Of a DNA stretch of 64,000 nt, positions 1 through 16,054 are shown in pieces (position 1 is the stretch's first letter; each line of letters opens with the position of its first letter). The DNA is taken from contig KZ537998.1 in NCBI GenBank assembly GCA_000934665.2, positions 1-64,000 of the forward strand, given 5' to 3'. This DNA comes from Catajapyx aquilonaris (taxonomy: Eukaryota). The notes under the pieces were generated by a model. It searched no databases. It was given only the letters and a program-made list of their open reading frames with translations, and was not told the DNA's origin. The translations under genes were made by a program, and so were the position numbers.

Positions 1-44
1 TTTCAGCTGGATCGGAGATAGGTGGTGAGATGCGTGAAGTTGGC

Positions 45-413
45 TCACCACTTTTTGAAACTAAATATCTCTGAAACTAAGAGGGTCCAATGAACGGAGC
101 AAAAATGCCCAAAGAGGCCATTGAGAGAACTACATAGTCCACTGATTTCAATTCGATCCGAGATAGTTGGTGAGCCAACTTCACACACGTCGTCCAGCAG
201 CCTTCCCACCATCCTCTCCATGCTCCCAATCCTCCTCTCCATGCCCCCAATCCTCCTCTCCATATCTTCCCTCCTCCTCTCTTCATTCTCCATGTACCTC
301 AACGTAGCCTCTAGGTACCTCCTGTTTCCAAGCATCACATCAACCATAGTTTTCATCCACACGTTCATTTCGCGTCCTCCTTGGTCACGATCGACGTCAC
401 GATTTGCTTCCAT
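45..413 (-). CDS. Possible exon/ORF encoding a heptad-repeat coiled coil (MERRIGG MERRIGS MERMVGR); product unknown
   Basis: 122-aa ORF; AG acceptor immediately before the ATG; 21-nt tandem repeats ~209-280 preserve frame; 3' part looks rearranged. Confidence 0.35.
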   Translation of the reverse strand: MEANRDVDRDQGGREMNVWMKTMVDVMLGNRRYLEATLRYMENEERRREDMERRIGGMERRIGSMERMVGRLLDDVCEVGSPTISDRIEISGLCSSLNGLFGHFCSVHWTLLVSEIFSFKKW

Positions 414-929
414 CTAACAGCGGATCAAGTAACACTAAATAGCGACTGCAGTGCAATACACAGGGTTTGGTGAAGGTGTGCACACGCTGACACTCAAAGG
501 GAGAAAATAGGCGACACGAGGACGAAGTCTACAGAAGGAAAAGGGCCATCTTGGATGCGGAGGGACCTTCCTGACGCTCACCACAGATGGCGTGATGATC
601 ATTTATGCACGAGAAGGGCCGCGACTTATCCATATTACGGGGCGTGTCTACCTTTTTGGCTACTTTTCCCCGGCGATTTGAAAAGAGGCTCTGTGTTGGT
701 AAATATGCATACAGGAATAAGACGAGTCTTATTACTTCCCGTATTAAATGGCCAAGTGCACCTATCGGTCGAGAATAAGGCATGTTGCTATTCAAAATTG
801 ACTTGTAGCCTATCTTCATCATAATAATATCTCATAATAATTTCATAATAATTTCCGGCCCCAGAGGCCCAGACGCGATGAAGGATTAGACACTTTTGTG
901 CAATGTGCAGAGACAGTGACTATAGGGCC

Positions 930-1463
930 CAGGGATATTCAACTGGCGGACCGCGGTCCGGATCCGGACCGCGACGCAATTTTGTCCGGACCGCGATAAT
1001 ATACATAACAGGACAGTTTGAAATAGCATGTTACTAATTCATGATTTTTTTGGAAAAAGTGCTACCAATATCATCAAATTCACACAGATTCAAATCTCCC
1101 CATCTCATCTAAGCTCCTCACCTCACCCTCCAAAAATTTCGCCTGCGGCGGGCTCGTTCCCCGCCCTTTACGGCTTGTTCACCTTTTGCTTACGAAATGG
1201 CCCCCCTTCCGAAATTCTTCTGCCTACGCGCCTGTACAGGACATCATAAAGGCCGAAATATATTGTCTTAATATGCCCTGTCTTGATAGGCCCTCCTACC
1301 CTTGCTGCACATGTTTATATTTTCGAATATGAACCCTGTGGTACCATATAAAATCTATATATTTTTATTCGGGGGGGGGGGGGGCCCCGGACCTNGTCCG
1401 GACCTTCAATGGCCCAGGAAAGGTAAATACTGGACCTTGTCAGAAACTAGTTGAATACCCCTG
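930..1463. mobile_element. hAT-like MITE with a nested second hAT-like end at ~1100-1234
   Basis: TIRs CAGGGATATTCAACT / AGTTGAATACCCCTG; subterminal GGACCGCGGTCCGGATCCGGACC palindromes; TATAGGGC close to both flanks (921-928, 1466-1473). Confidence 0.75.
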
Positions 1464-1790
1464 CGTATAGGGCATTTTTTGCGATAGAGAAGACATGAAG
1501 CGACGAATACCGCGTTATGTCCGGTTATGTACATCAATCGGATGATCAACATCTATACTAAGCAATGCCAACTTTGCCTTTGGTATGTGGGACACGCACG
1601 GTTTTTGGGCCGGGCCGCCCTATGCCTATGAGCATTGACATTGTCATTCATTAATCTGTCACTTCTCACGTGTGTGTGGGATGCAACTGAACTACCTGAC
1701 CAGCTCACGACAGCGACTCAAGATTCTGTGTAAGTTCAGTCAGCTCAGTGGTCTTGCCCACATGCAGGATGCATGCAGTGCAGTGTACCA

Positions 1791-1828
1791 CCGTCTTTAG
1801 CTAAGTTGGTAGAGAGGTGGATTGTAGG
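1791..1828 (+). pseudogene. tRNA-Tyr(GTA)-like 5' half fragment
   Basis: CCGTCTTTAGCTAAGTTGGTAGAGAGGTGGATTGTAGG resembles the eukaryotic tRNA-Tyr 5' exon (about 32/38 against the recalled sequence); no T-arm/B box follows. Confidence 0.45.
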
Positions 1829-4112
1829 TGGATCAAAAGTGTACCGTCTTTCCTGGTTAAGCATGTATTTCTTCAAGAGTATGTCGGAGCTATGCTTAGA
1901 TATCAGAGTTTCTCATCCATATAGGAAAAGCAGTGGATCATACAAGTATAGTCGTCCTACGTGAATGTAGATCCGGTGTAAGGTGGACGACAGCTGTGCT
2001 GCCCTGACGTTGTCTATAGACCACATAAAGGTCCCTAATAAGAGGCAACCTGTTAATTTTTGGAAATCTGAACAAGTCTTACCTAGGGGTGCCCAACCTA
2101 TGGCTCACGAAAGGGAAGTTTTAAAAAATTAAATTCGTACATAAAACAATCAAAATAAAATTCAAAATAAAACAAGAGTGGATGACAGCAAAAGGCAAGC
2201 CAGAACCAAGAGTTAGATATCCGAGGTAGTTTACTGACTTTCCCTTCCTCACAGACATTTTAAAACCATTAAACGAATTTCGAATTTGAAACTTTGATCA
2301 AAAGATCAATTACCGGTACTGTAGTTCATGTCCTGTTCAATCAAAGCAAAGGATTTCGCGTGAAATTATAAACTCTTGAAGTGCCCATTTAAAAACAAAT
2401 ATAAAATCTCATTTTCAAATTTTGTTGAAACTTCAGCCTACTACTGTATATAATTATATACAGTGTACGGTACTCTCCTTACATGTGGCTGCGATAATTA
2501 TCTCACATTCAGGCAGAGTTTCAAATGAGATTTCAAGATTTCCGCGCTCAAAAGAGCATCCTGAATGTGATAGATAATGGGGAAGTAGCCTTGGTCTGGG
2601 ATTTGGGATTTTTGTTCATAACTAGCTAGCCCATGCCTGTAAACATACATTCCATCACTTTGTTGCATCAAAATGACATTACTGGATAAATTACGGCACA
2701 TTTAAAAGTGCCTTCAAAATTGCCGGGAAAAATGCCCCGGCCGGGTGGTGCCAATCGAAAGGGTACACTGAAATGCCTGGTTGACTGCGAGATATGAGGA
2801 ATTTGACTTTGAATTAACCGCGGACACGACGGAAAGCATTCGCAAGGCGGCTGTAGGCCATCAAGGTGGAGAAGGGGGGCCTTCATGTGCCGAATTCGGG
2901 TGACAGATAATTCCGACCTGGTGGCATCACTGCCATGTACAAAGCGGCTTGAGCGACCTGGAATAAATACGCGCCCCGGCCGCTATCTTGCTCACGGAAT
3001 GGGACGGTTGCTAACAACAGCGAAGCATTTTACAACAATGACGGGGCGCGTTCTATAACACCCTTTTTGCATTCATTTCACTTCGCGTGACGTCAACATT
3101 TTCTAGGGAAACAGTGACGTCACCATTTCCCTACATAAAAACCCCAATTACTCCGGAACTGAAACTGATGTCTTAAAACGGAATATGCCAAAAAAATCCA
3201 AAAATATGGGCGAATTTATTATGTAGTTTCCAAAATGAAGGCTACTTCCCCATTATAACCCCTTCTCTGGGAATGTGATTGAGACTCAGAGGACGCTGAG
3301 GACCTCCAAATGGAAATCATTGACCTTCAATGCATTCGTCATTGCTATAAAACCAGCAATCAATCGATCAAAGCTCCGCAAAAGAAAGAAAAGGGGGGAA
3401 AATGGAACTCTGACCTGACATATTTTCATGAAATGCCTCTCCAACATTTTTACCAAAAAATAATTACTTATCATTTATAATTATAATTATAATTATAGAG
3501 TAGAAGAGGGAAACTTGAACTTAATGTATCCGGCAAGATAAGCATCTTGAGTTCTTTGGAGAAGCACTGATAAAAAATTATGCGTCCATTTTCATGTAGG
3601 GCCTACGTGAATGCCATCGGTATGTTTCAAGTGTCCGGGTCCTTTCAGTTATCACACATTTCGCACGAAGTTGTTATTTTTGTGTAGCTATGTTTGCGCC
3701 CCGATTGAGGTGCCCAATTATTCCCAGGTGTGGTGTGGTGTGGGCACCTCTATCAGGGCGAAAAAGCTACACCAAAATAACGTCTTCGGATTAAAGCAAT
3801 AACTAAAAGGACCCGAATAATTGCACACAGTTTGTTCTATTTCTATTTTTCGCAAGTGTAAGAAATTGGCTTGAATATTTTTGAAAGCTTTTTGTCAATG
3901 ATATTATGGTTCTAATATATTGTCAACAGTAACATATTAAAGAATGTACATGATTGTGCTATTTTGGATCTTCCATTTAGGGCCGGTTGTATCAATGCAA
4001 ATTGAGGAAGAAATCTCCGGTTGTGTCTAATTATGCGTTAATATACTCGTAATAATTGGTTACCCCGTGATAGGCCTGTTTGCTTGCTTTATTGCTATCC
4101 ACGCAAATTCTT

Positions 4113-4197
4113 GAGAAATTCCTCTGACTGACCAAGGGATCGAACTCGGGATCTCAGGTGGTGAATGGCAGTGATGATAACCACTACACACCACCCC
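4113..4197 (-). mobile_element. tRNA-derived SINE head fragment
   Basis: Minus strand A-box-like TGTGTAGTGG, B box GAGTTCGATCC, followed by GGAATTTCTC shared with the copy at ~32103-32193. Confidence 0.55.
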
Positions 4198-4259
4198 TAC
4201 GCATTGTGTATTGTGTGAATACCTGTGATTTTCCCTAATTTGCTTTAATATAACCGGCC

Positions 4260-5609
4260 CACAGTGGGCGCGGAGCCCAGTTTAGGACGACATAAGTAGG
4301 TTTTGCGAATTTTATCAAAACATCCTTTAAGGAACAGTAAATGAAGGACAAGGCTTCCACAATGACACTTGTGATTGGAAATTGGAAAACACTGCCCCTT
4401 TTTTTCTATTTGGAGGCCGACACTTTGCCCCTCTTCCGTTTTGGATTTCGCGATGCGTTTCATGCAGTTATTACAATATTCCCTGGTTGTCATATGCGTG
4501 GGTGAAAATGGCTGAAATTATTTTTCCTACGTGATTTGACGACGCACTTGATATTTAAGCACAAATATCCTCTGGTGAGAATTTAGCTTATGTTATTTTT
4601 GAATAAACACTTGACCCCTCCTTATACGTAAGAAACGTTGCACAAAAAGTAAGATTAAACAACTTGCACCTCTTTGCACCACTCGCTGACAGTATGCAAT
4701 AAATGGTTTAAAGCCTAACGGATGCATGTATAAAAAATTAGCCTCCGATAGCCCCCGCTTGTCGGGTAGTATGTTGAATTAGTGTGACCCTGCGCTAGAC
4801 CAAGGAGGCTCCACCTCCAGGGTAGAGCACTACCACGTGCGCCCACTACTTCGCACCTCGCCTGGCTACCTACCCCCTTGATTGACAGGAACCTTCCACT
4901 GGCTCCTTTCACTAATCCCAGCAAGTCATTTAAATATTCACTTATCTTCATTTTTAACGACAATTTTGAATTCTGCAGTGTCAATTACCTATCATTGCAT
5001 GTAAAAGTTTCTCATCCAGAGCTATTATATTTAAGCGAAATATTACGCAAAAGTAAGAGGGTACAAGTGTTGATAATTATGATTTATTAAATATTGGGAC
5101 AAATTTTGCATGCTCAGTTGGGTTATCGACGACAAGGAATTCAATTTTGCAGTGAAAAGTGCAAAATTAAAAGTTTTGAAAATAGTTAATGAGATTACAG
5201 AGAAGGGTCAGTGCAGAGGCTTATCAGCAATTAGGAAGAATACCCTATCATCGGCTGTATGATTTTATAAAGCTGTTTATTTTGTTGTGTACTATCTCGT
5301 ATTTAATAATTTACATGTACCTGTAAGTCAGTTACAAGGAGAATGTATTGCTTTTTTCTGGATAATATATAATTATGTGCCTTCATGAACGAACATTACA
5401 GTCTTATTCCTGTAATTTTTATCCCGGTCAATTAAAATCGAAACCAAATTACTTCTTACACCAACATTGACCACAATGATTATCCAATGAACATGAAGGT
5501 CACATGGCATGCATAACCTATCCTTTACAATCCTCAAAATTGGAAAATGTGTCCGATTTGATAGCATTTTCATTTATGTCGTCCTAAACTGGGCTCCGCG
5601 CCCACTGTG
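4260..5609. mobile_element. Non-autonomous Transib-superfamily DNA transposon (1350 bp)
   Basis: Perfect 36-bp TIRs CACAGTGGGCGCGGAGCCCAGTTTAGGACGACATAA; exact 5-bp TSD CGGCC (4255-4259, 5610-5614); no transposase ORF inside. Confidence 0.85.
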
Positions 5610-6834
5610 CGGCCATTCGAATTACAAAGTTTACGTAATTGTCTTGTATCATCCAGAAACTATAAGTTATACAGAATTCACTACAACCCAATGTACATTT
5701 GCCGAATATAAGATGTTTCGTAACATATTGTAACGGAATACACGAACATTCAGTGTTCATCTGAGGGTTACATCCTACTTAGATTACATTTGTGCACCAA
5801 CTACATTATTTTGTATTTTCCATTACGGTACCGACGTGGCAAGTTAGTAGAATATTTGAAAGGTATTGAATCAGTGTAAATATTGAAATGTTACCATGGT
5901 CGTAAAGAGTGCTGATGCCTCAAATATGATATCAAAGTGTTGCTTTTACTATGCAAATAAAATCCTTGCAGTTAAGCAATTAAACTCTCAGTTATTGCAG
6001 TGTATGAAGGAGGTAACTAATTTTATGGCACTGAACCAAACATTCACTTGAATTGCATTCAATCGCCCCTGCCATATACAGTATGTTAATTGTTAACTAT
6101 ACACTGTAAAAGTTTACTTCTCAGAAACGAGTGTCAGGGGCCACCAATAACGTTTTGTAATTAGTCCTGAATCAGTCCTGTTTTACTTCGGGCGATTCTA
6201 CGAATTTTGATGCATAATATGCATAAGAATGTGAATGAAAAAGGTGAAAGCCTTAAGATTACAAAAGAGTGACAAACACCGGGGGGGAGGGGGGGGGGGG
6301 AGGTATCGAAACACAACTTTTTGTGCGAAGTTGCAGTTTCTGAACTTTAAAGGGCTACATGAATACATAGGAACCTTCTCAATTTTTTATTCTACTTTTT
6401 AGAGATATGGTGAATGTCACTCAATTATTTTTGAGTCCATATTGTTCACTAAGACTGACATTGATGTGACTTTTCATTATATTGCCCTATTTGCAGCGTT
6501 ATCACACTGTGAAAAAAGTGTTGCGCAATAATTGATTTCTTTGAATAAGTTTTTTGTGAACAATATGTGGCAAATAAATTGGGTGACATGACACCCACCA
6601 CTTTATAAATAAAAATTAAGATGTTCCTCTAGCTTTCCGTGGCCCCCAGAATTAATAGAAAATCACGTAGAAAATTCACATTAGTAAAATCGCTATTCTG
6701 AGATTTTTCTTCCATAATACCGTATAATGCATCCTGTGCACATTACCAAAACTCTTACTGTCCCAAAATATAGGAGTCCGAAGATTCCCACCATTGCACA
6801 GTGTGTCCAAACGCGGAAATGCTTGGACAAAAAT

Positions 6835-7209
6835 GGCTTCCATTCCGCGCGGATTTGTCACGAAGGTCACGATATTCCTCTGATTTTCAAGATGAAAAGT
6901 AGTGAATTTCACAAGAGTTTCCCTTTGAATGACACATCAAACGAATGACTAGACTCCCCTGTTATAGATTCACTCAGTTTTAAGTGCACACAATTGCATC
7001 TTTTGTCGGGGTAGGCGGGTAGCATGACAAATATTGCCTCCTTTTTGGAAAAAATGTGGGATTATGTGGGATTGAAACGAAGTGAGTCGTATAACTCGGG
7101 AGTCTAGTCTTTCGTTTAATGTGCGATTCGAAGTGAAATATTGTGAAATCCGTTACTTTTCGTGTTTGAAATCAAATCATTGACGTGACAAATACGGGTG
7201 ATGGAGGCC
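6835..7209. mobile_element. Foldback MITE, PIF/Harbinger-like ends
   Basis: Imperfect inverted arms of ~140 bp (GGCTTCCAT..ATTTGTCACG..GACTAGACTCCC vs GGGAGTCTAGTC..CGTGACAAAT..ATGGAGGCC). Confidence 0.65.
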
Positions 7210-7514
7210 TCAAGAAAGGACCGCCTGGCACCCAGGGCGGTTTAAGGATCCGCGGGGCCCGTAGCTAGCGGGGCCTCCTTGGCTCCATGTACAGTACTAG
7301 TACATAATTGCATTTTGCAACTCCCTTGGGCAGACAGGAAAAATGACGACTGACTGACAGTAACCTTGGGTATATGCGAATGAAGAAATGGCAATATTGC
7401 ATATTTGCATTTAATATATATTTTTTAAATAATTGTGGGTAATGCTTTCACCCCCAACCGGGGGTATATCGCATGAACCTTTATTTATTTTTGTTCAAGT
7501 TTCTCAACTCAACT

Positions 7515-7704
7515 TCGGTGCAAGGAATCAAGGAAATTGGGTAAGGATAGTAATTTTCGGGGAGGGAACATGGGTGCAAGTGCAATGTCTGAAAATGGGT
7601 CATGTGCTGTTCCCCAGGAGGCTAGGCTGCCAGACACCTCCTTGGTGCAGGTCAGAGACCCTCCTGACGCAGGTGAAAGGAAAGTTCCCCAGGCGGGGAT
7701 CGAA
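7515..7704 (-). mobile_element. 5'-truncated copy of the SINE family also present at 52913-53140
   Basis: Reverse complement is highly similar to 52963-53140, starting at the B box TTCGATCC; A-rich tail ~7480-7495. Confidence 0.8.
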
Positions 7705-8912
7705 TTGGTTGCAAAGTTTCTTCAACACAAAATACCTCTGAGTATCTTCTGTGGTCAAGAACAAGAGTATCAATGCTTGCCATGCTCCGCGGTGCTTGTA
7801 GAGCAGGTCAAATTTAGAAAAATGTCAAGTGATATGATTCATGAGCATCACTGATTGCGTGGATCCTACCAAAATCCACTTCTGATCTCCATATTTGGCT
7901 GAAATCTCAATCAAACATTTCCCGTATTATTTGAAGTGCCATTAAAAATGAACAGTACGGGTCGATAAATGAGTAATAAAAATATCAATATTTTGGGAAC
8001 CATGTTGAATTTAAATTTTGGATTTTCTTATGGATATGAATGACCATCTCATATAAAATGAAAATACCTTTCAAATGCACTCATCAAATTTAAGATTTAA
8101 CCTGATCTTGTGGCCCTCCGAAGTAACAGCATATATGGGGCAAAAATGCTAGAAAATTTGCACATTTGACACCCTGTAGTTTCGAAACCATGCCTCATAC
8201 ATATAAACAAACTCGGTTGTATAAACCCATTTATGGGAGCTACAATATATCCAAATGTGGTCAAAAATCGGAGAAGGTTATGGCAAAAGGTGGCTCCTTT
8301 GATGTCGTGGAATCCCCCGTTGCGCAGGGCAATTTCTGGAAAAAAAATGTCACGTGACAGGACCCATGTGCAGTGTGCACTGATCGCATAGGACCAAACA
8401 AAACTCCATGCAAAGTTTGGTGCTTTTGTCCAACCTGTCTCCTTCATCTTGCTAAGAGCCCCCCACTATGTCAAGACCTTCACCAATATTGATTTAAGCT
8501 GTACCATAGGTCTTACATCAAGCAATTCCAAAATTAATTCTTATAAAGTATCCTTTCTGAAGAGAGTTCAATGAGCCACTCACTCCATGTAAGTGTATTT
8601 CTGACATTAGGAACTTCATTATTAAGTATACCGGAATTGAATTTCTATAGTAGCCTAGTAATGGTATCTATACTATATGATTGGCCACCTGCACGCCATC
8701 ATGTTTGCTGGGTCCCAAGTGTGCCCCATGCCACACAACGAGCCTCAAGCCCATCAAAGCTCCCTGGTTTTGCCAACTGTTGCCCACCACACGTAGTCAC
8801 CTCCCCATCTAGCAAGCATGGAGCCCAAAGGGTAGTGAAGCCACCATGACTATTGCTTTGGAAGTGAGGTCATGGTTAGACTAGATTCAAACTAATAAAT
8901 GCATGAAGTTCA

Positions 8913-8918
8913 TTTATT
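8913..8918 (-). promoter_or_regulatory. Candidate polyadenylation signal (AATAAA) of Miga, implying a ~1.6 kb 3' UTR
   Basis: First minus-strand AATAAA I found downstream of the stop; lies inside the CpG-depleted domain. Confidence 0.35.
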
Positions 8919-10531
8919 TCTAATCATCCTGATTGTAATGAGAAAGTGGTGTGGAAATTCTGTTAAGCATATCAGTTACTCCTGGAATTAAATGCCAGTA
9001 ACAATTATCAGGTCATAAAACTAGAATAACATTTCAGATATAAATAAGCCATTGTGTTAGCTACAATAAAAGTTCACAAAGTCAAATGCAAAAAGGTGTA
9101 AATTAGACTTTATAATTCTACAGCATCTTGCTTTCCAGCCCAACATCATTAACTATGAATCGTCAGGAAAGCATATTGCCATTCCTGATTCCATCACTAG
9201 AGCGCCACAGACACAATCAAAAGGAAGCACTGCATTTGAACCCAAGTGTGTGAATTATAGTCAAGTGTGGAGTTATAAGGTTCCAGGAACACACCCCGCG
9301 GGGTGAGAATTACAAGGTTGTAACTGCAATGAAAATCCTAAGCGTAGTTACAACCTTGTAATTCTCACCCCACAACTGGTTATGCTTTTCTATCAAATTT
9401 TCTACCAGTTTTTCTACCAGATCACAATTTTTGTCCTTGGATGTGTTGCCACAAGTTTTGCAACAAGTTAGAATAGATCTCATATGACCAGCTCCAAGAC
9501 ATAAAGTTGACCCACTTTGACAGCACAGTATTGTTTGTAAATGTACCACCTGAGATGTGAGGGCTTGAAAGGCAATAGGATAATAATATAGTGTCACAAA
9601 ATCTCATGATTTCATTCATGAAGAACTGTGTTTCAGAGACAATGCACACTATGAAGTTCAAAACCATATTTCCTGTTCATTCAAACAACATACAGAATCA
9701 TCATTTCATATCTGAACTATGCATGACATACAATGTTAACCATCCAATGGTGCATTATGAAACCCACAGTATATATGAAGACATTTTCTCTACTCCCAAC
9801 TACACAAGTCACCTAAAAATCCATAAATTGCCCTTTGTTAGGGCCTTCACATGGTATCACGGACCTATTTAAATCTATTACATTCACTAAATTGTCTGGA
9901 CCACTACAGTGGAATATTCGTATCATATGTAGCCTACTGTAGGGACACCCATGTGCATAAATACAAAAGAAGTCCTTGGCATCATTTAGCTAACTAATCC
10001 TCTGTACAGGCACTCATGTGCTAGATACAACAGTAGTTGACAACTGCTTAATTTGCAGGTGGAAAATTCTTCTGGTAAAATTAAGTATAATATTACATGG
10101 GCAAGATAGGAAATTTGTCATGTAAATATTGTCCTACTGTATTTTGAGTTGAAACAGTTAATGGTTAGAATAGACCTTGCTGACATGTTTTGCACTCTTA
10201 ATGGGAACACAAAATGCAGCCGTAATGATGTCCAATGATTCTGATGCACTGTGTAACATGGATGACACTAACTGGGAGATGTCAAATGCATAATCAACCA
10301 CTACATTTCAATCAACAGCTTCTGGATGTACCAGCTAACAGTAGTTAATCACACTTCAAGATTCAATCATGGTAATGTTATCAAACTTATTCTCACAATT
10401 TGTCAAGCAAATAAAATCTACATCGCGACTTCCCGAGCTGAATAAAAGCAATGGAGCCATGCGATTGGGCATCCGTCGCTTCTCTCAATATCAAGAACTA
10501 ACAGGTGCCAAATATTCTACCCTTAGGAATA

Positions 10532-10708
10532 CTACTGCATGGGCAGGAAATCTTGACTACCCAAGATGCTCAGAAGGTCAAGCCTCTCTTCAACTGCCTT
10601 GTATCTCTGCTGTGCTGACTGAAAAATGTCTCTTGACAGTTCATCTACTGTTGTGTAGTGAACTTTTTGAAAACTGAAAATGTCTTCCAGGAAGCCTGTA
10701 ACTTGATC
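10532..10708 (-). CDS. Miga: Mitoguardin terminal coding exon (DQVTGFLEDIFSFQKVHYTTVDELSRDIF...DFLPMQ*)
   Basis: Acceptor tctctttggtAG; 177 nt to TAG at 10532-10534; matches the MIGA C-terminal GFL.DIF.F..V.YT pattern. Confidence 0.93.
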   Translation of the reverse strand, partial: DQVTGFLEDIFSFQKVHYTTVDELSRDIFQSAQQRYKAVEERLDLLSILGSQDFLPMQ

Positions 10709-10820
10709 CTACCAAAGAGAAACCATTAAATTAATATCATGCCATAAATGACAGTCACGAAAAAGAAGAAAAAATTATTATTGCTGACCTATACTCATGC
10801 CACATGGGACAAAGGGGTTA

Positions 10821-11937
10821 AGGGCCGTACACATATTATATCATAACATTTTTTTTACATTAACCCCTCCCCCCTGCCCCCGGGTTTTTGGTTGGTTTAT
10901 TCATCCCAACTTGGACCCCCCTCCCCCTGTCATCATCTTTGGTCCTTGGCAGTCGGTCCGGATTTTTAGGCACGAAAAAACCCCAAAATAGGCACGAAAA
11001 AACCTCAAATATGCACAAAAATTTTACTTCTTCGGGAGTATGGCGGATAATGTTACAGAAAATAAAAAGCTACAATAATTTTATAGGCCTAAAGTATAAA
11101 TATAAGGTCACAAACCATAGCAAAAACCGAATAACAACATTAAACTGACAAAAAATCACGAAACTTGGGCAAAAGACACCAAGTGCAAGCAAATATCACT
11201 TGCTCTGGACTCGATTACTGTTGTTGTTGTTGTATGCGTTTATTTATTCCAGGCTCGGTCTGCGGCTCGTGCCGCTTGGCCGACCCTCTACATTTTTTAA
11301 ATTTTTTTTTGCAAAACATAATGCAAAAATATAATACACTACTACACTAGAATACAGTACAATACTACAACACTACATATCTTTCTGCCCCCTCACTTCA
11401 TCTCTTCCACCACACCTCCCCTGTCTTCCCTCTTCCCCTGGACTCGATTACTGCTTATGGCCAGTTTCCACTTGCACAATATGTTGCCAAAATCTTTTCT
11501 AAATTTTCCTCTGTTAGGAACATTCAGAGGAAGATTTAGAAAAATATTTGGCATACGCGTCACGAAAACATGATTCGTATTACTTCTGAACGATTTTGGA
11601 CCTTTCAGGAGCACAAAAAATATTCAGCAGAAAAACCAAACATGCCTCTGAAAAAATAGGTCCGGAATAGGCCCAAAAAAGGCCAAATAGGCATGAAAAG
11701 TCACTAAAAGCCAGAATAGGCAAAATAGTTCCCCAAACCACAAAATAGGCAATTTTAGGCACTATAAAACCTACATTTTCCCTATCCTGCACTTACGAGT
11801 ATGAAATGGATGGATCTCTTCACAAAACCATCCCAACAGTTAAGGAACTAAATAGGAATTTGCCTACAAATCCGGACTCTAGTCATCAGGTAGCAACACA
11901 CACACCCCCGATGATGACGTAATATGTGTATGGCCCC
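10821..11937. mobile_element. PIF/Harbinger-like MITE in the last Miga intron, host of a nested element
   Basis: TIRs AGGGCCGTACACATATTATATCAT / ATGACGTAATATGTGTATGGCCCC with TTA on both flanks. Confidence 0.7.
10937..11881. mobile_element. Nested hAT-like non-autonomous element
   Basis: Inverted termini GTCCGGATTTTTAGGCA / TGCCTACAAATCCGGACTCTA; repeated AATAGGCA subterminal motifs; flanking GTCATCA(T/G) near-duplication. Confidence 0.6.
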
Positions 11938-12304
11938 TTAGGTCTCTTTCTCTAACCCTACACACCTACACTCATCTAATATGACCAGATGACATATTAT
12001 TGAGCACATGCATAAATGGTATTTAAAATCATTTTTATCATATTTCACCAATATACGAGTACTACATTCCAAATGAAATATCTGTAGTGGGTAGTGACTT
12101 TGTGGCACTAAGCTGCTTATTTCAAGCAATTTTAATAGAATTTATCAAAAGTATTACCTGCTACTATTAGGTTGCTCAAAGGTGTGACCAGAAAAACTAA
12201 TTATTTCTATCACTGATTTTCGGTGACAATAGTTCCAATGGGGCATTCCTAATCAGAAACTCATAATTCAAAGCTTGGATAAATGATTCAATGCAGCCTA
12301 ACTC

Positions 12305-12572
12305 GGGCGGCATGGTGGTCTTGCGGTTACGCCGCTGGCCAGCCAAGCCGGGGTTCAAATCCCGTCCCCGTCACCTCTGCTTGGCCAGGTCTTTTTCCGC
12401 TTTTCTCCCGACATGCTGGGACAGAATTGCACTCCTTTCTCTGCTCGGGGCCAGGAGAATAGGCCTCGTGTTAAAGAATGTCAGACATGGCTATCACACG
12501 GAACGGCGCCCTCCCTTGGGAACTTCCCCTTCCCCCCTAAGAGGGCCACGAGCTATATCACGGGGTAAAAAA
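12305..12572 (+). mobile_element. tRNA-derived SINE in the last Miga intron
   Basis: A-box-like TGGTCTTGCGG, B box GGTTCAAATCC (12352-12362), A-rich end; CpG-rich within CpG-poor surroundings. Confidence 0.65.
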
Positions 12573-12578
12573 TATATA

Positions 12579-12650
12579 CAGCGGAGCATCGATTATCCGA
12601 ACCCCGATCAACCGAACCATCGTTTAACCGAACGTTTTCGGGTCGGCAAA
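12579..12650. mobile_element. pogo/Tigger-like terminus fragment
   Basis: TA|CAGCGGAGCATCGATTATCCGAAC followed by repeated CCGAAC motifs; no partner end found. Confidence 0.45.
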
Positions 12651-13899
12651 AAAAGAGGAAAAAAGTGTGATTTAGCCACCAAAAACACGAGCCTCAGCTC
12701 TCAAGCAAAAGAAATTGGCCTCTCTCCCCCCCTNCAAAAGAAATTGGCCCCCCACCCCTAAACTGTAGGACTGCTTCATGTAAGGACATGTAAGGTATAT
12801 ATAGGCCTACAGTATTTTTAAGACGTGCCTGTGACAGAAAATATACAGTTTTGTGGTTAATATCACTGTTTCTTAGTTTCATATTTACAACCACAATGGG
12901 ATTATACTCTTGGTTACTACACATGGTAACCATGTCTTATTGTCCAACAAATGTAACCTCAAGTAAAAACTCTTGGCAAAATTGAAGAAACATATCTTTT
13001 TTAAACATCACTTATCTCATTTTGCACCACCTTAATGAAATTTTTGCCTTCCTTGACTTTCCCTAACATTTTAAGGTGTTATGGCAGTATTTATTATTAA
13101 CTTAGGATTATCAAGAATAAAACAATGCTCCAGTTCAGGAACTGCTGCTTGTTACTAAAAAATTTGGGAGCTCAAGATTTAAAAACACTCAGGACTGATA
13201 TTCCCTATTGATAGCAGCATCTTTCTGCCGTCCAAAGGAGAAACCCCATAACTGCAAAACTAGTAAGGGTGAAAGTTGCATGCATGCCCTGCATTTATCC
13301 CCTGACTCAGAGGGTGCAGGGTGTGCATCCGACCTCACTCTGACTATAGTCCCCAGCAGGTTAACTTGGCAGTCCGTCTTCCCAACACTCCCAGCCAATG
13401 GCGTGCCTGGATTCGGATGGGGCAGGGGGGGGGGGTACAAATTGTCATTAAAGGTTTGCTTTAAGATGTGCGTCGCAACAATTCACGTTATCAATATTTC
13501 CAAGTTTAATTGTCATCACAGTAGGGCGTAAGAGGTTTGTGTGGCGGAGGGACGTGACGTAGAAGGCAGCGGGTGGTAGGGGGTAGAGGAGGTAGGGAGC
13601 GGTGGGGGGAGGGGGGGGGGCAAGAGGGGGCGTTGCCAGAAACCCCCACCCTGACACGTTATGGGGCAACCTACTATAGTTTTGCAGTCAGGATGTTTTC
13701 TCCTTGGGACAGCAGCTTTACTCATGAGATAAAGCTGCATTTTCATATCAGCTGACCACAACAACCATTATTATCTTAAGTGCAAATTGAGGACTCTCTA
13801 GGGGTCTAGGCCCTGTTTTAAATAACTTTCAATAGCTGCAACAGACTCACTAAACAGGCTGAATTAATAATTATACAACAAGCGTCATAAATTACTCAC

Positions 13900-14070
13900 T
13901 TTGAAAAATGCACACAGCTCCTTCAGGTGCTCATCAGGACCTAAAAACCCCCATGCTACGGGAGGGCTGATGTGTTCCATGATGTCATAGAAGTGGGAAC
14001 TGAATCCATGCTGATACTTTAGCAATCCCCTTTTAGCCTTCAGGATGGACCATAGTACAGTTGTCATTGC
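13900..14070 (-). CDS. Miga: Mitoguardin exon (AMTTVLWSILKAKRGLLKYQHGFSSHFYDIMEHISPPVAWGFLGPDEHLKELCAFFK)
   Basis: Acceptor tacttAG, donor GTgagt; 171 nt; WSILKAKR and AWGFLGP motifs. Confidence 0.96.
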
Positions 14071-14156
14071 CTAAGTATTATGAAAAAAACTGTCACCTTA
14101 AAGTAACTCCTTCTTAGAGGTTATGTGCATGCAAGGTTCGAGGCTAGAGGTCTCAC

Positions 14157-14390
14157 TGTTTCCTTGAATCCATTGGATAGCCATCTGTTCTGCATGACAG
14201 CAACAACAGTTGATGGGGGATTTTCCAAGTCCTCAAATGCATCCATGAAAATATAATCCATCACAATGTCAAAAAAGGTCAGTGCTCGTACACCACGGTC
14301 ACGAAGTTCAATTTCCATCTCAGTCCAGTGGTCTGACTTCATCACAAATTCAAGTGCTTTGTCATATGCCACTAAGAAGTCCTTTGGATC
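14157..14390 (-). CDS. Miga: Mitoguardin exon (DPKDFLVAYDKALEF...FFDIVMDYIFMDAFEDLENPPSTVVAVMQNRWLSNGFKET)
   Basis: Acceptor atttttAG, donor GTgaga; 234 nt; DAFEDLENPP and NRWLSNGFKET are hallmark MIGA C-terminal-domain motifs. Confidence 0.97.
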
Positions 14391-14684
14391 CTAAAAATGT
14401 GAGGACATTATTAGTAGGATTACAGTTGATTAATACTGCTAACTACTCAATATCATAACTTGAGCACTGAACTCAGTAGGCTCTATTTTAAAAATCACAG
14501 GGTTTCCGTTGTTATTAATTGTTGGTTAGTTTTTGTCAGCAATTAATCACACCCAGAAACCCATGGCTTTTGTCCTCGAGTTACTGCAGTTAGTTATCTC
14601 AACAGCAACAGGCTTGGAAAGCAGCAATATTTACTACCGAATTACTGGTCAATTGCTCTGGGAAGCAGGCCAGCAAGGATACTA

Positions 14685-14837
14685 CAGTTGAATCCAGATA
14701 CGTACACTATAACAGACTTCAAGGAACCGTGGAAACCAGTCTGTTATAACCAAGGTCTGTTATAGCTGAATATACAAACCATATATGGAAATTTGCTGGG
14801 ACCGGCCTTTTGAGTCTGTTATATCTGGATTCAACTG
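14685..14837. mobile_element. Tc1/mariner-pogo type MITE in a Miga intron
   Basis: TIRs CAGTTGAATCCAGATA / TATCTGGATTCAACTG, TA on both flanks, internal GTCTGTTATA repeats. Confidence 0.8.
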
Positions 14838-14929
14838 TATAACTAAAGCCCACTAAATTACCAGAGTTAACCTCTGATGAGGCTGTTGCCTTGGAACCAA
14901 ACAACAAATAATTTAATTCACATGCCTAC

Positions 14930-15098
14930 CTTTTCTGCCTTTAGAAGCAATCCAACTAGAACTTTGCGACCAGATTCTGCAAACCATAATTTAACAGTTT
15001 CTTCTCTAAAAAGATACTGGAATGCCAGGCGGACACAGTGCAACTTTGCCAAATATTCTGCATCAGAAGTGCAGTGCACCATTAAAGTCCGGAGGCTC
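14930..15098 (-). CDS. Miga: Mitoguardin exon (SLRTLMVHCTSDAEYLAKLHCVRLAFQYLF...LLLKAEK)
   Basis: Acceptor aattttcAG, donor GTaggc; 169 nt; conserved YLAKLHCVRLAF motif of MIGA proteins. Confidence 0.95.
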
Positions 15099-15243
15099 CT
15101 GAAAATTAAAAATAATCAATTGCATTATCGTGATATTTCATATGGCAGAGAATAGTCCTTAAATGTAATTTGACAGCAGTAAATCACTGCACTGGTTCAA
15201 AGACAATTTGCATGTCACTTGACAACTGCTCTAAATTGTACGG

Positions 15244-15316
15244 CAACATGGACATGGGTATAATTACTAGGTTCATCAACATGGACATGGGTATAATTAC
15301 TAGGTTCATCAACATG
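15244..15316. repeat. Exact 33-bp tandem duplication (2.2 copies), intronic
   Basis: CAACATGGACATGGGTATAATTACTAGGTTCAT x2 + CAACATG. Confidence 0.95.
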
Positions 15317-15738
15317 TTCCACAAACATGGGCACTTATTTAGCAGTGTTTACTGTAAATGGTGTCATGTACTTAGTAACTGTGCCCAACTCAATATAAAT
15401 CAATAGATCTTCACATAAAGAGAATCACATTCCAGGTTACACAAATAGTTATGATTAGTAGCCTATTAGTAGTTTATATAAAATCAGGGAGGCCCAGTTA
15501 ATGGTTACAGATTAGCACTCAAATAACAAGACCTTTTAACTTGGGGCTGTTGCTATTTAATATACCGGTAAAATGCATAGTACACTGTAAAAAAGTGGAA
15601 TTATGGCTCTACATTACAACACTCATATGCCTGATAAACTGGAAAATATACAATCATGATGGTGCAACACACATCAAGTTTTCTGTGCTTTGACGCCTGT
15701 GATGCCAGAAATCTTGCCAAGTCCCACTTTCAACTCAC

Positions 15739-15851
15739 CTATATGGAATTCCCTTTTCGTCCAGGTGTTGCAGGGCTGATTGGTACAGGGGATAGGCGTC
15801 AGCATCCAGAGGCAGGTCCGCGAAATCTTCAAAATCTCGTAGGTTTGCGAC
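15739..15851 (-). CDS. Miga: Mitoguardin exon (VANLRDFEDFADLPLDADAYPLYQSALQHLDEKGIPYR)
   Basis: Acceptor tgtgcAG, donor GTgagt; 113 nt; phase 2 joins the next exon. Confidence 0.92.
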
Positions 15852-16054
15852 CTGCACAGCAAAATATCACTAATTACCATCGACCCCATTACACGCAGTT
15901 ATCAAGAAGAGTATAAGTGTATCAACAGACCCAACCTTGCAATGTAAGCTAGAAAGACCATGTTTTGGCATGAGTTAAAAATGCTTCTAGCTATTATGCT
16001 CCTTCAAGGTTATATTGTGTGGAAGGAAAATAATCAAGAAATGTATTCCATCAC

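Follow-up and report, generated by a model that had tools for sequence, protein, structure and literature searches.

A short mobile element in the 64,000-nucleotide stretch of Catajapyx aquilonaris DNA analysed here (contig KZ537998.1, positions 1 to 64,000; hereafter the window) ends on both sides in sequences that read like the 23-spaced recombination signal sequence (RSS23) of V(D)J recombination, raising the question of what kind of transposon it is, how recently it moved, and by which enzyme. Very likely it belongs to a non-autonomous Transib family that arose from an autonomous Transib through internal deletion, and is itself a young insertion that is still polymorphic; its RSS23 look would then reflect the ancestral design of Transib ends.

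The element, its surroundings and its family

The element occupies positions 4260–5609 (1350 bp, 38.7% GC). Its terminal inverted repeat (TIR) arms, at 4260–4295 and 5574–5609, are 36 nt long and 100% complementary, and CGGCC at 4255–4259 and 5610–5614 forms an exact 5-bp target-site duplication (TSD) with one mismatch to the family target CGNCG, reproducing the limits given in the original prediction. Its description of the ends is likewise borne out, as ACATAA(G/A)T lies 23 nt behind CACAGTG on both sides. The left end (plus strand) consists of the heptamer at 4260–4266, a spacer at 4267–4289, and a nonamer-like block at 4290–4298 (ACATAAGTA) that matches the RSS nonamer ACAAAAACC at 5/9 positions. 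The right end (minus strand; TIR 5572–5609, in the symmetric state) has its heptamer at 5603–5609, spacer at 5580–5602, and block at 5571–5579 (ACATAAATG, 6/9). The window contains two occurrences of the first 21 TIR bases, where shuffled sequence would lead one to expect 0.00. Taken alone, the nonamer match is weak, such scores being reached at 6.5% (5/9) and 1.5% (6/9) of window positions, and the left and right matches do not count as independent. Across the family the TIR measures 38 bp (4260–4297 on the left); identity in the window copy ends at 36 bp because G replaces A at left-end position 37 (window 4296), a variant otherwise present only in copy C16695 (1 of 17 other left ends counted).

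Between the TIRs, on the plus strand, lie a non-coding 5′ interior common to sister copies (4298–5241), a deletion junction (5242–5253) with about four residual codons of a transposase C-terminus followed by a secondary deletion of ~120 bp, and 3′ untranslated DNA of a Transib transposase gene (5258–5321). As predicted, the element has no transposase reading frame; a Transib profile HMM found no match, and hence no detectable transposase remnant, in six frames of the whole window, and an Rfam search of 3000–8500 returned nothing inside the element and a single weak chance match outside it. Window positions 4881–5210 are 68–70% similar to another repeat family (L044:4132–4613, L045, L046, L047) with weakly palindromic copies that are 85–93% alike. 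Four loci with 68–70% similarity to element positions 610–953 (C952, C1601, C14887, C597) were considered as autonomous copies and rejected as members of another repeat family. Long frames flanking L030 and L045 resemble variant ionotropic-receptor genes, which points to an arthropod host.

The insertion sits within the right arm of a small inverted-repeat element that predates it (3977–4259, TTA-GGGCCGGTT ends, inverted repeat 78%), an element that by its signature we take to be PIF/Harbinger-like and that has a loose end in run X5. A Mitoguardin gene (Miga, PF10265) of four exons occupies 10535–15115 on the minus strand, and the element is about 5 kb past its last Pfam-matching exon (87 of 88 listed frames in 1–16000 scanned). 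Two further repeats lie nearby. At positions 6797–7232 another non-autonomous Transib family (~760 bp) is represented by a truncated copy, 94% identical to a copy on C619 and ending in CACAGTG-23-ACAAAAATG, with no second end of that family in the window. Positions 7475–7808 hold an extremely high-copy repeat (summed depth >100,000 in runs X1–X3) that is probably SINE-like.

A DNA search of the 285.6-Mb assembly for the family gave 73 matches, a lower bound (40 of 43 candidates scored), many of them 90–97-bp ends located at contig breaks. From these, 20 left and 13 right ends were collected, anchored on subterminal DNA. A second full-length copy (C3804, 1849 bp) is flanked by an exact TSD of CGACG, so that both full-length copies have exact 5-bp duplications, and 15 other copies diverge from the window copy by 1.6–6.4% at aligned bases. 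The targets are strongly patterned: among the 28 of 33 ends that start CACA and have a full flank (leaving out L005, L008, L009, L018, and L146), CGNCG precedes 23, and G at −4 and C at −2 precede all 28, some of these ends belonging to the same insertion; in the window CGNCG occurs at 0.1% of sites. The family thus combines the GC-rich target, 5-bp TSD, ~38-bp TIR starting with CAC, and heptamer, ~23-nt spacer and A-rich block of a Transib.

Conservation of the inner block

The RSS23-like layout is itself the published default of Transib ends and not a peculiarity of this element. PMC1131882, from 2005, describes a 38-bp Transib TIR composed of a heptamer, a variable 23-bp spacer and an A-rich nonamer, with the majority of families RSS23-like at both ends and flanked by 5-bp GC-rich TSDs, and symmetric Transib ends with 20–22 spacing are reviewed in PMC8355894. 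The ends resemble antibody-gene recombination signals, then, because Transib ends normally look so; the layout singled out in the original prediction is real, but as a standard design it has long been in print. A close parallel is TransibN1_SP of the purple sea urchin (Kapitonov and Jurka 2005, PMC1131882 Fig S4g), also non-autonomous and displayed with symmetric 36-bp termini, whose first ten bases (CACAGTGGGC) are those of the present family and whose duplications (CGGCG/CGCCG/CGACG) likewise fit CGNCG, while its spacer, inner block, host and length (about 0.9 kb, compared with 1.35 kb here) differ. The element shares with V(D)J RSS23 the heptamer, the 23-nt spacing, and AA at nonamer positions 5–6, but its nonamer matches reach just 5/9–6/9, both ends have spacers of 23 so that there is no 12/23 pairing, and it has neither antigen-receptor segments nor a linked RAG partner.

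A more specific question is whether the inner block is anything other than ordinary AT-rich subterminal DNA, as it would be if function resided solely in the heptamer and the ~16 outermost bases of the TIR. The commonness of 5/9 and 6/9 matches fits this explanation, but the spacing does not. CACAGTG-N22-GACAWA, a pattern designed from these ends, occurs 197 times in the genome compared with 31 for a reversed control, and a free-gap version 210 times compared with 43; among the first 100 listed matches the spacer is 23 in 51 and 22 in 21, a sharp peak, and 12 in only one, like background lengths. A comparison between families that was not conditioned on the nonamer, using the window copy and the six transposase-enclosing elements among 13 TIR pairs (for C5404, one of two alternative pairs), gave identities of 0.96 for the heptamer, 0.36 for positions 8–30, 0.44 for 31–39, and 0.33 for 40–55. 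The best 9-nt stretch begins at position 28, with an identity of 0.458 that none of 1000 shuffles reached, although the seven families are related and are not seven independent tests. Nonamer positions 7–9 (37–39) stand at background level between families, as the chance explanation would have it, and a spacer-internal TTTAG(G/C) stretch is also retained among the closest families.

Variation within the family points both ways. Positions 31–39 (left 2/162, right 2/99) vary less than positions 8–28 (left 13/378, right 28/231), the comparison with the spacer originally proposed, but no less than adjacent subterminal anchor DNA (1–2%). In addition, G37 is shared by two differently flanked insertions and was therefore tolerated. 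Published work on HzTransib is similarly divided, since PMC4840297 reports TIRs with little or no nonamer similarity but also sensitivity to the presence and position of a nonamer; on 23/23 RSS donors HzTransib has poor activity. On balance we regard the purely fortuitous block as unlikely. The between- and within-family comparisons together indicate a second, modestly conserved block at a fixed distance from the heptamer, best represented as GGACAWAA at about positions 28–36 and overlapping just the first six nonamer positions. Relative to the Transib superfamily consensus in PMC1131882 (CACAATG ... AAAAAAATC), the present family reads CACAGTG ... ACATAAAT, and its conserved block opens with the GG that closes the spacer.

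Age of the insertion and symmetry of its ends

An empty-site allele, looked for as the original prediction had advised, is present in assembled contigs of runs X1–X3, all from one sample (S1). The joint skips 1355 bases, corresponding to the element and one TSD, so that exactly five bases are missing besides the element itself, and its depth (29.3, 47.7, and 46.2) equals or nearly equals that of the flanking contig (30.1, 47.7, and 46.2); run X5 has no coverage at the joint. At the joint, with coordinates 4260 to 5616, the base following the single CGGCC is C, where the window has A. Since the arm symmetry of the host element predicts C, the joint may be read as the pre-insertion allele. Summed depth across the element is roughly 7–16 times that of the flank, a sum that is no copy number. 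Moreover, C16695 and C4559 carry differently flanked ends that match the window copy at 100% (97 and 95 bp, respectively). The empty allele and the identical ends elsewhere therefore show, on the evidence of one sample, that the insertion is polymorphic and, as had been proposed, recent. The opposite reading, in which the perfect TIRs and TSD belong to an old inert copy or are a product of assembly consensus, could appeal to the 1.6–6.4% divergence of the 15 other copies, to homogenisation as a source of TIR perfection, and to the many family ends at contig breaks, which indicate that the family is imperfectly assembled. Against the empty site in S1 and the identical, differently flanked ends, it is highly improbable.

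The symmetry of the TIRs is a less direct sign of youth. Four right ends (C4110, C5428, C11338, and C13498) show many spacer differences from the left TIR, and three of the four carry ACAAAAATG, a 7/9 nonamer match. The ~200 bp adjoining these divergent ends contain few base differences where present (C5428 retains only about 70 bp), and the right end of C13498 is a mosaic. In C3804 an identical private base occupies position 21 of both TIRs. Asymmetric C4110 and the symmetric window copy share the secondary deletion, which symmetric C3804 and C11375 lack; the deletion thus crosses the two classes, and TIR state does not track descent. These patterns suggest that one end, probably the left, was repeatedly copied onto the other, or that copies recombined, and the perfect symmetry of the window copy probably arose by such left-end copying. 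TIR homogenisation occurs in other DNA transposons. Flawless TIRs, taken at the outset as evidence of recent movement, are hence consistent with a young element but probably owe something to end homogenisation as well.

The linked transposase and candidate enzymes

The family is connected to a transposase through a frameshifted C-terminal fragment (G000:C1435) whose sole PDB match at E ≤ 0.001 is HzTransib (6pqn, E 3.1e-35). The last codons and 3′ DNA of this fragment run on into C11375, C3804, C3631, and C11746 (87–95%), its 3′ DNA also extends into window positions 5258–5321 (97% over 64 bp), and sister copies still carry some 30 codons from the end of a Transib transposase. The alignment displays the primary deletion junction; the window copy, C14774, and C4110 additionally lack the ~120 bp of the secondary deletion. 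This continuity between gene DNA and family copies identifies the family as a deletion derivative of Transib and confirms the proposed superfamily. It also disposes of the Chapaev/CACTA (CMC) partner that the original prediction had named as contrary evidence, a group with 2–4-bp TSDs according to bioRxiv 10.64898/2026.08.26.747230, given the 5-bp TSD and the linked Transib transposase. The same preprint describes a similar situation in Drosophila melanogaster, where Hopper/Kodama and Nozomi are likewise ~1.4-kb central-deletion, non-autonomous Transibs with a 37-bp TIR and 5-bp TSD, mobilised in trans; their target is CARTG, compared with CGNCG here, and their autonomous parent is known, whereas here there is just a broken fragment.

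A partnership with a RAG1-like transposon (RAG1L/RAG2L, ProtoRAG-type) reading true RSS23 ends, which the original prediction had also entertained, is largely refuted and barely credible: the canonical CACAGTG with 23-nt spacing, the 7/9 nonamers of the three older right ends, and a RAG1 family genome search not sensitive enough to rule out a RAG1L gene leave it some room, but the family-linked transposase DNA matches HzTransib alone in the PDB, a profile built from 53 relatives gives E 1e-193 against HzTransib and just 5e-14 and 1e-11 against amphioxus RAG1L and RAG1, respectively, and all six transposase-bearing elements with TSDs identified here also start with CACAGT. The RAG1 search (Pfam PF12940) gave 0 matches from one candidate with blank controls, its model missing C2893 (see below) despite an above-cut-off score. 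Nor is there a RAG1L gene between the TIRs as in RAGL/ProtoRAG, the linked transposase being Transib-type and the window copy devoid of a coding remnant.

Returning to a Transib source, the cognate fragment has 62 genome matches (71 candidates scored), and the expectation of an intact enzyme elsewhere is upheld as regards open Transib frames, whereas no intact copy of the family's own transposase was found. Among nine DNA matches the transposase core is present only in C1435, frameshifted; no additional family ends or transposase lie around C4110, C5428, C6885, C933, and C1435; and none of the inspected transposase loci is an intact parent with the same TIRs, in an assembly fragmented into 20,583 contigs. 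In a public search among longer proteins the best relative of the cognate fragment was 63% identical, and no intact family copy was returned. C2439, an N-terminal transposase fragment with 54% identity to C2893, has no DNA in common with the element, so that it cannot be taken for the cognate 5′ half.

Two open frames stand out. The first, on C3133 (L093:2320–5553), belongs to an apparently intact 3234-bp Transib with a 730-aa frame, a TSD of CAACG, and ends reading CACAGTG-22-ACAAAAAAA and ACAAATACA; its TIR is identical to that of the window family at 14/38 positions. The second, C2893 (L092:261–2983), has a 600-aa frame (HzTransib E 7e-126, Pfam RAG1 29.9 bits) with its 5′ end truncated by the contig start, 60–67% identity to the cognate fragment, a CGNCG flank, and a TIR identical at 27/38 positions, making it the best candidate in the assembly for acting in trans. 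Together with C5357 (L094) and C298 (L184) it represents a sister family with related TIRs, CGNCG flanks, and 50 matches, in which C5357 holds a separate 5′ coding piece, probably a first exon. Two other elements were seen in the course of this survey. A 1340-bp element on C3631 (L189:2320–3659) belongs to a third related family, with asymmetric ends (26/38 and 29/38 relative to the family TIR) and a near-perfect 5-bp duplication, and C5404 (L099:1783–5581) is a Transib with two alternative left ends (5058 and 5581), CGGCG following each of them, possibly a nested or duplicated end.

The N-terminal basic region of the relatives aligns, at only 1.8 bits, with a RAG1 segment that we take to be the nonamer-binding domain (NBD), and a region of this kind may read GGACAWAA ~22–23 bp into the element. 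Mobilisation would otherwise follow the HzTransib model. According to PMC4840297 the CAC heptamer is essential, excision proceeds by nick-hairpin chemistry, and 5-bp GC-enriched TSDs are produced; by analogy, a transposase supplied in trans would cut the present element at its CAC heptamer by the same chemistry and insert it with a 5-bp stagger. The source of the enzyme may be a cognate copy that is missing from the assembly or has since been lost, or else the sister family C2893/C5357. The family resembles HzTransib (Helicoverpa zea) in its 5-bp GC-rich TSD and CAC start, and the Transibs of this genome differ from it in their 22–23-spaced inner block and, relative to the solved construct, in a longer N-terminus. 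A literature search combining HzTransib with CGNCG found no paper.

A bolder proposal, which we put forward tentatively and consider rather doubtful, is that repeated copying of the left TIR switched the family from asymmetric to symmetric ends that are still moved in trans by a C2893-type enzyme, its NBD-like region reading GGACAWAA exactly 23 bp behind the heptamer. If true, the family would offer a naturally occurring 23/23 Transib system, an arrangement that HzTransib handles poorly, and a direct test of whether the reading of a nonamer two helical turns away is older than RAG. Whatever the fate of this proposal, the element represents one more young polymorphic Transib family in a genome rich in them, and its matched symmetric and asymmetric ends, together with an open sister transposase, provide material for testing which inner TIR bases are needed, requirements relevant to how the RSS nonamer and the spacer rule originated.
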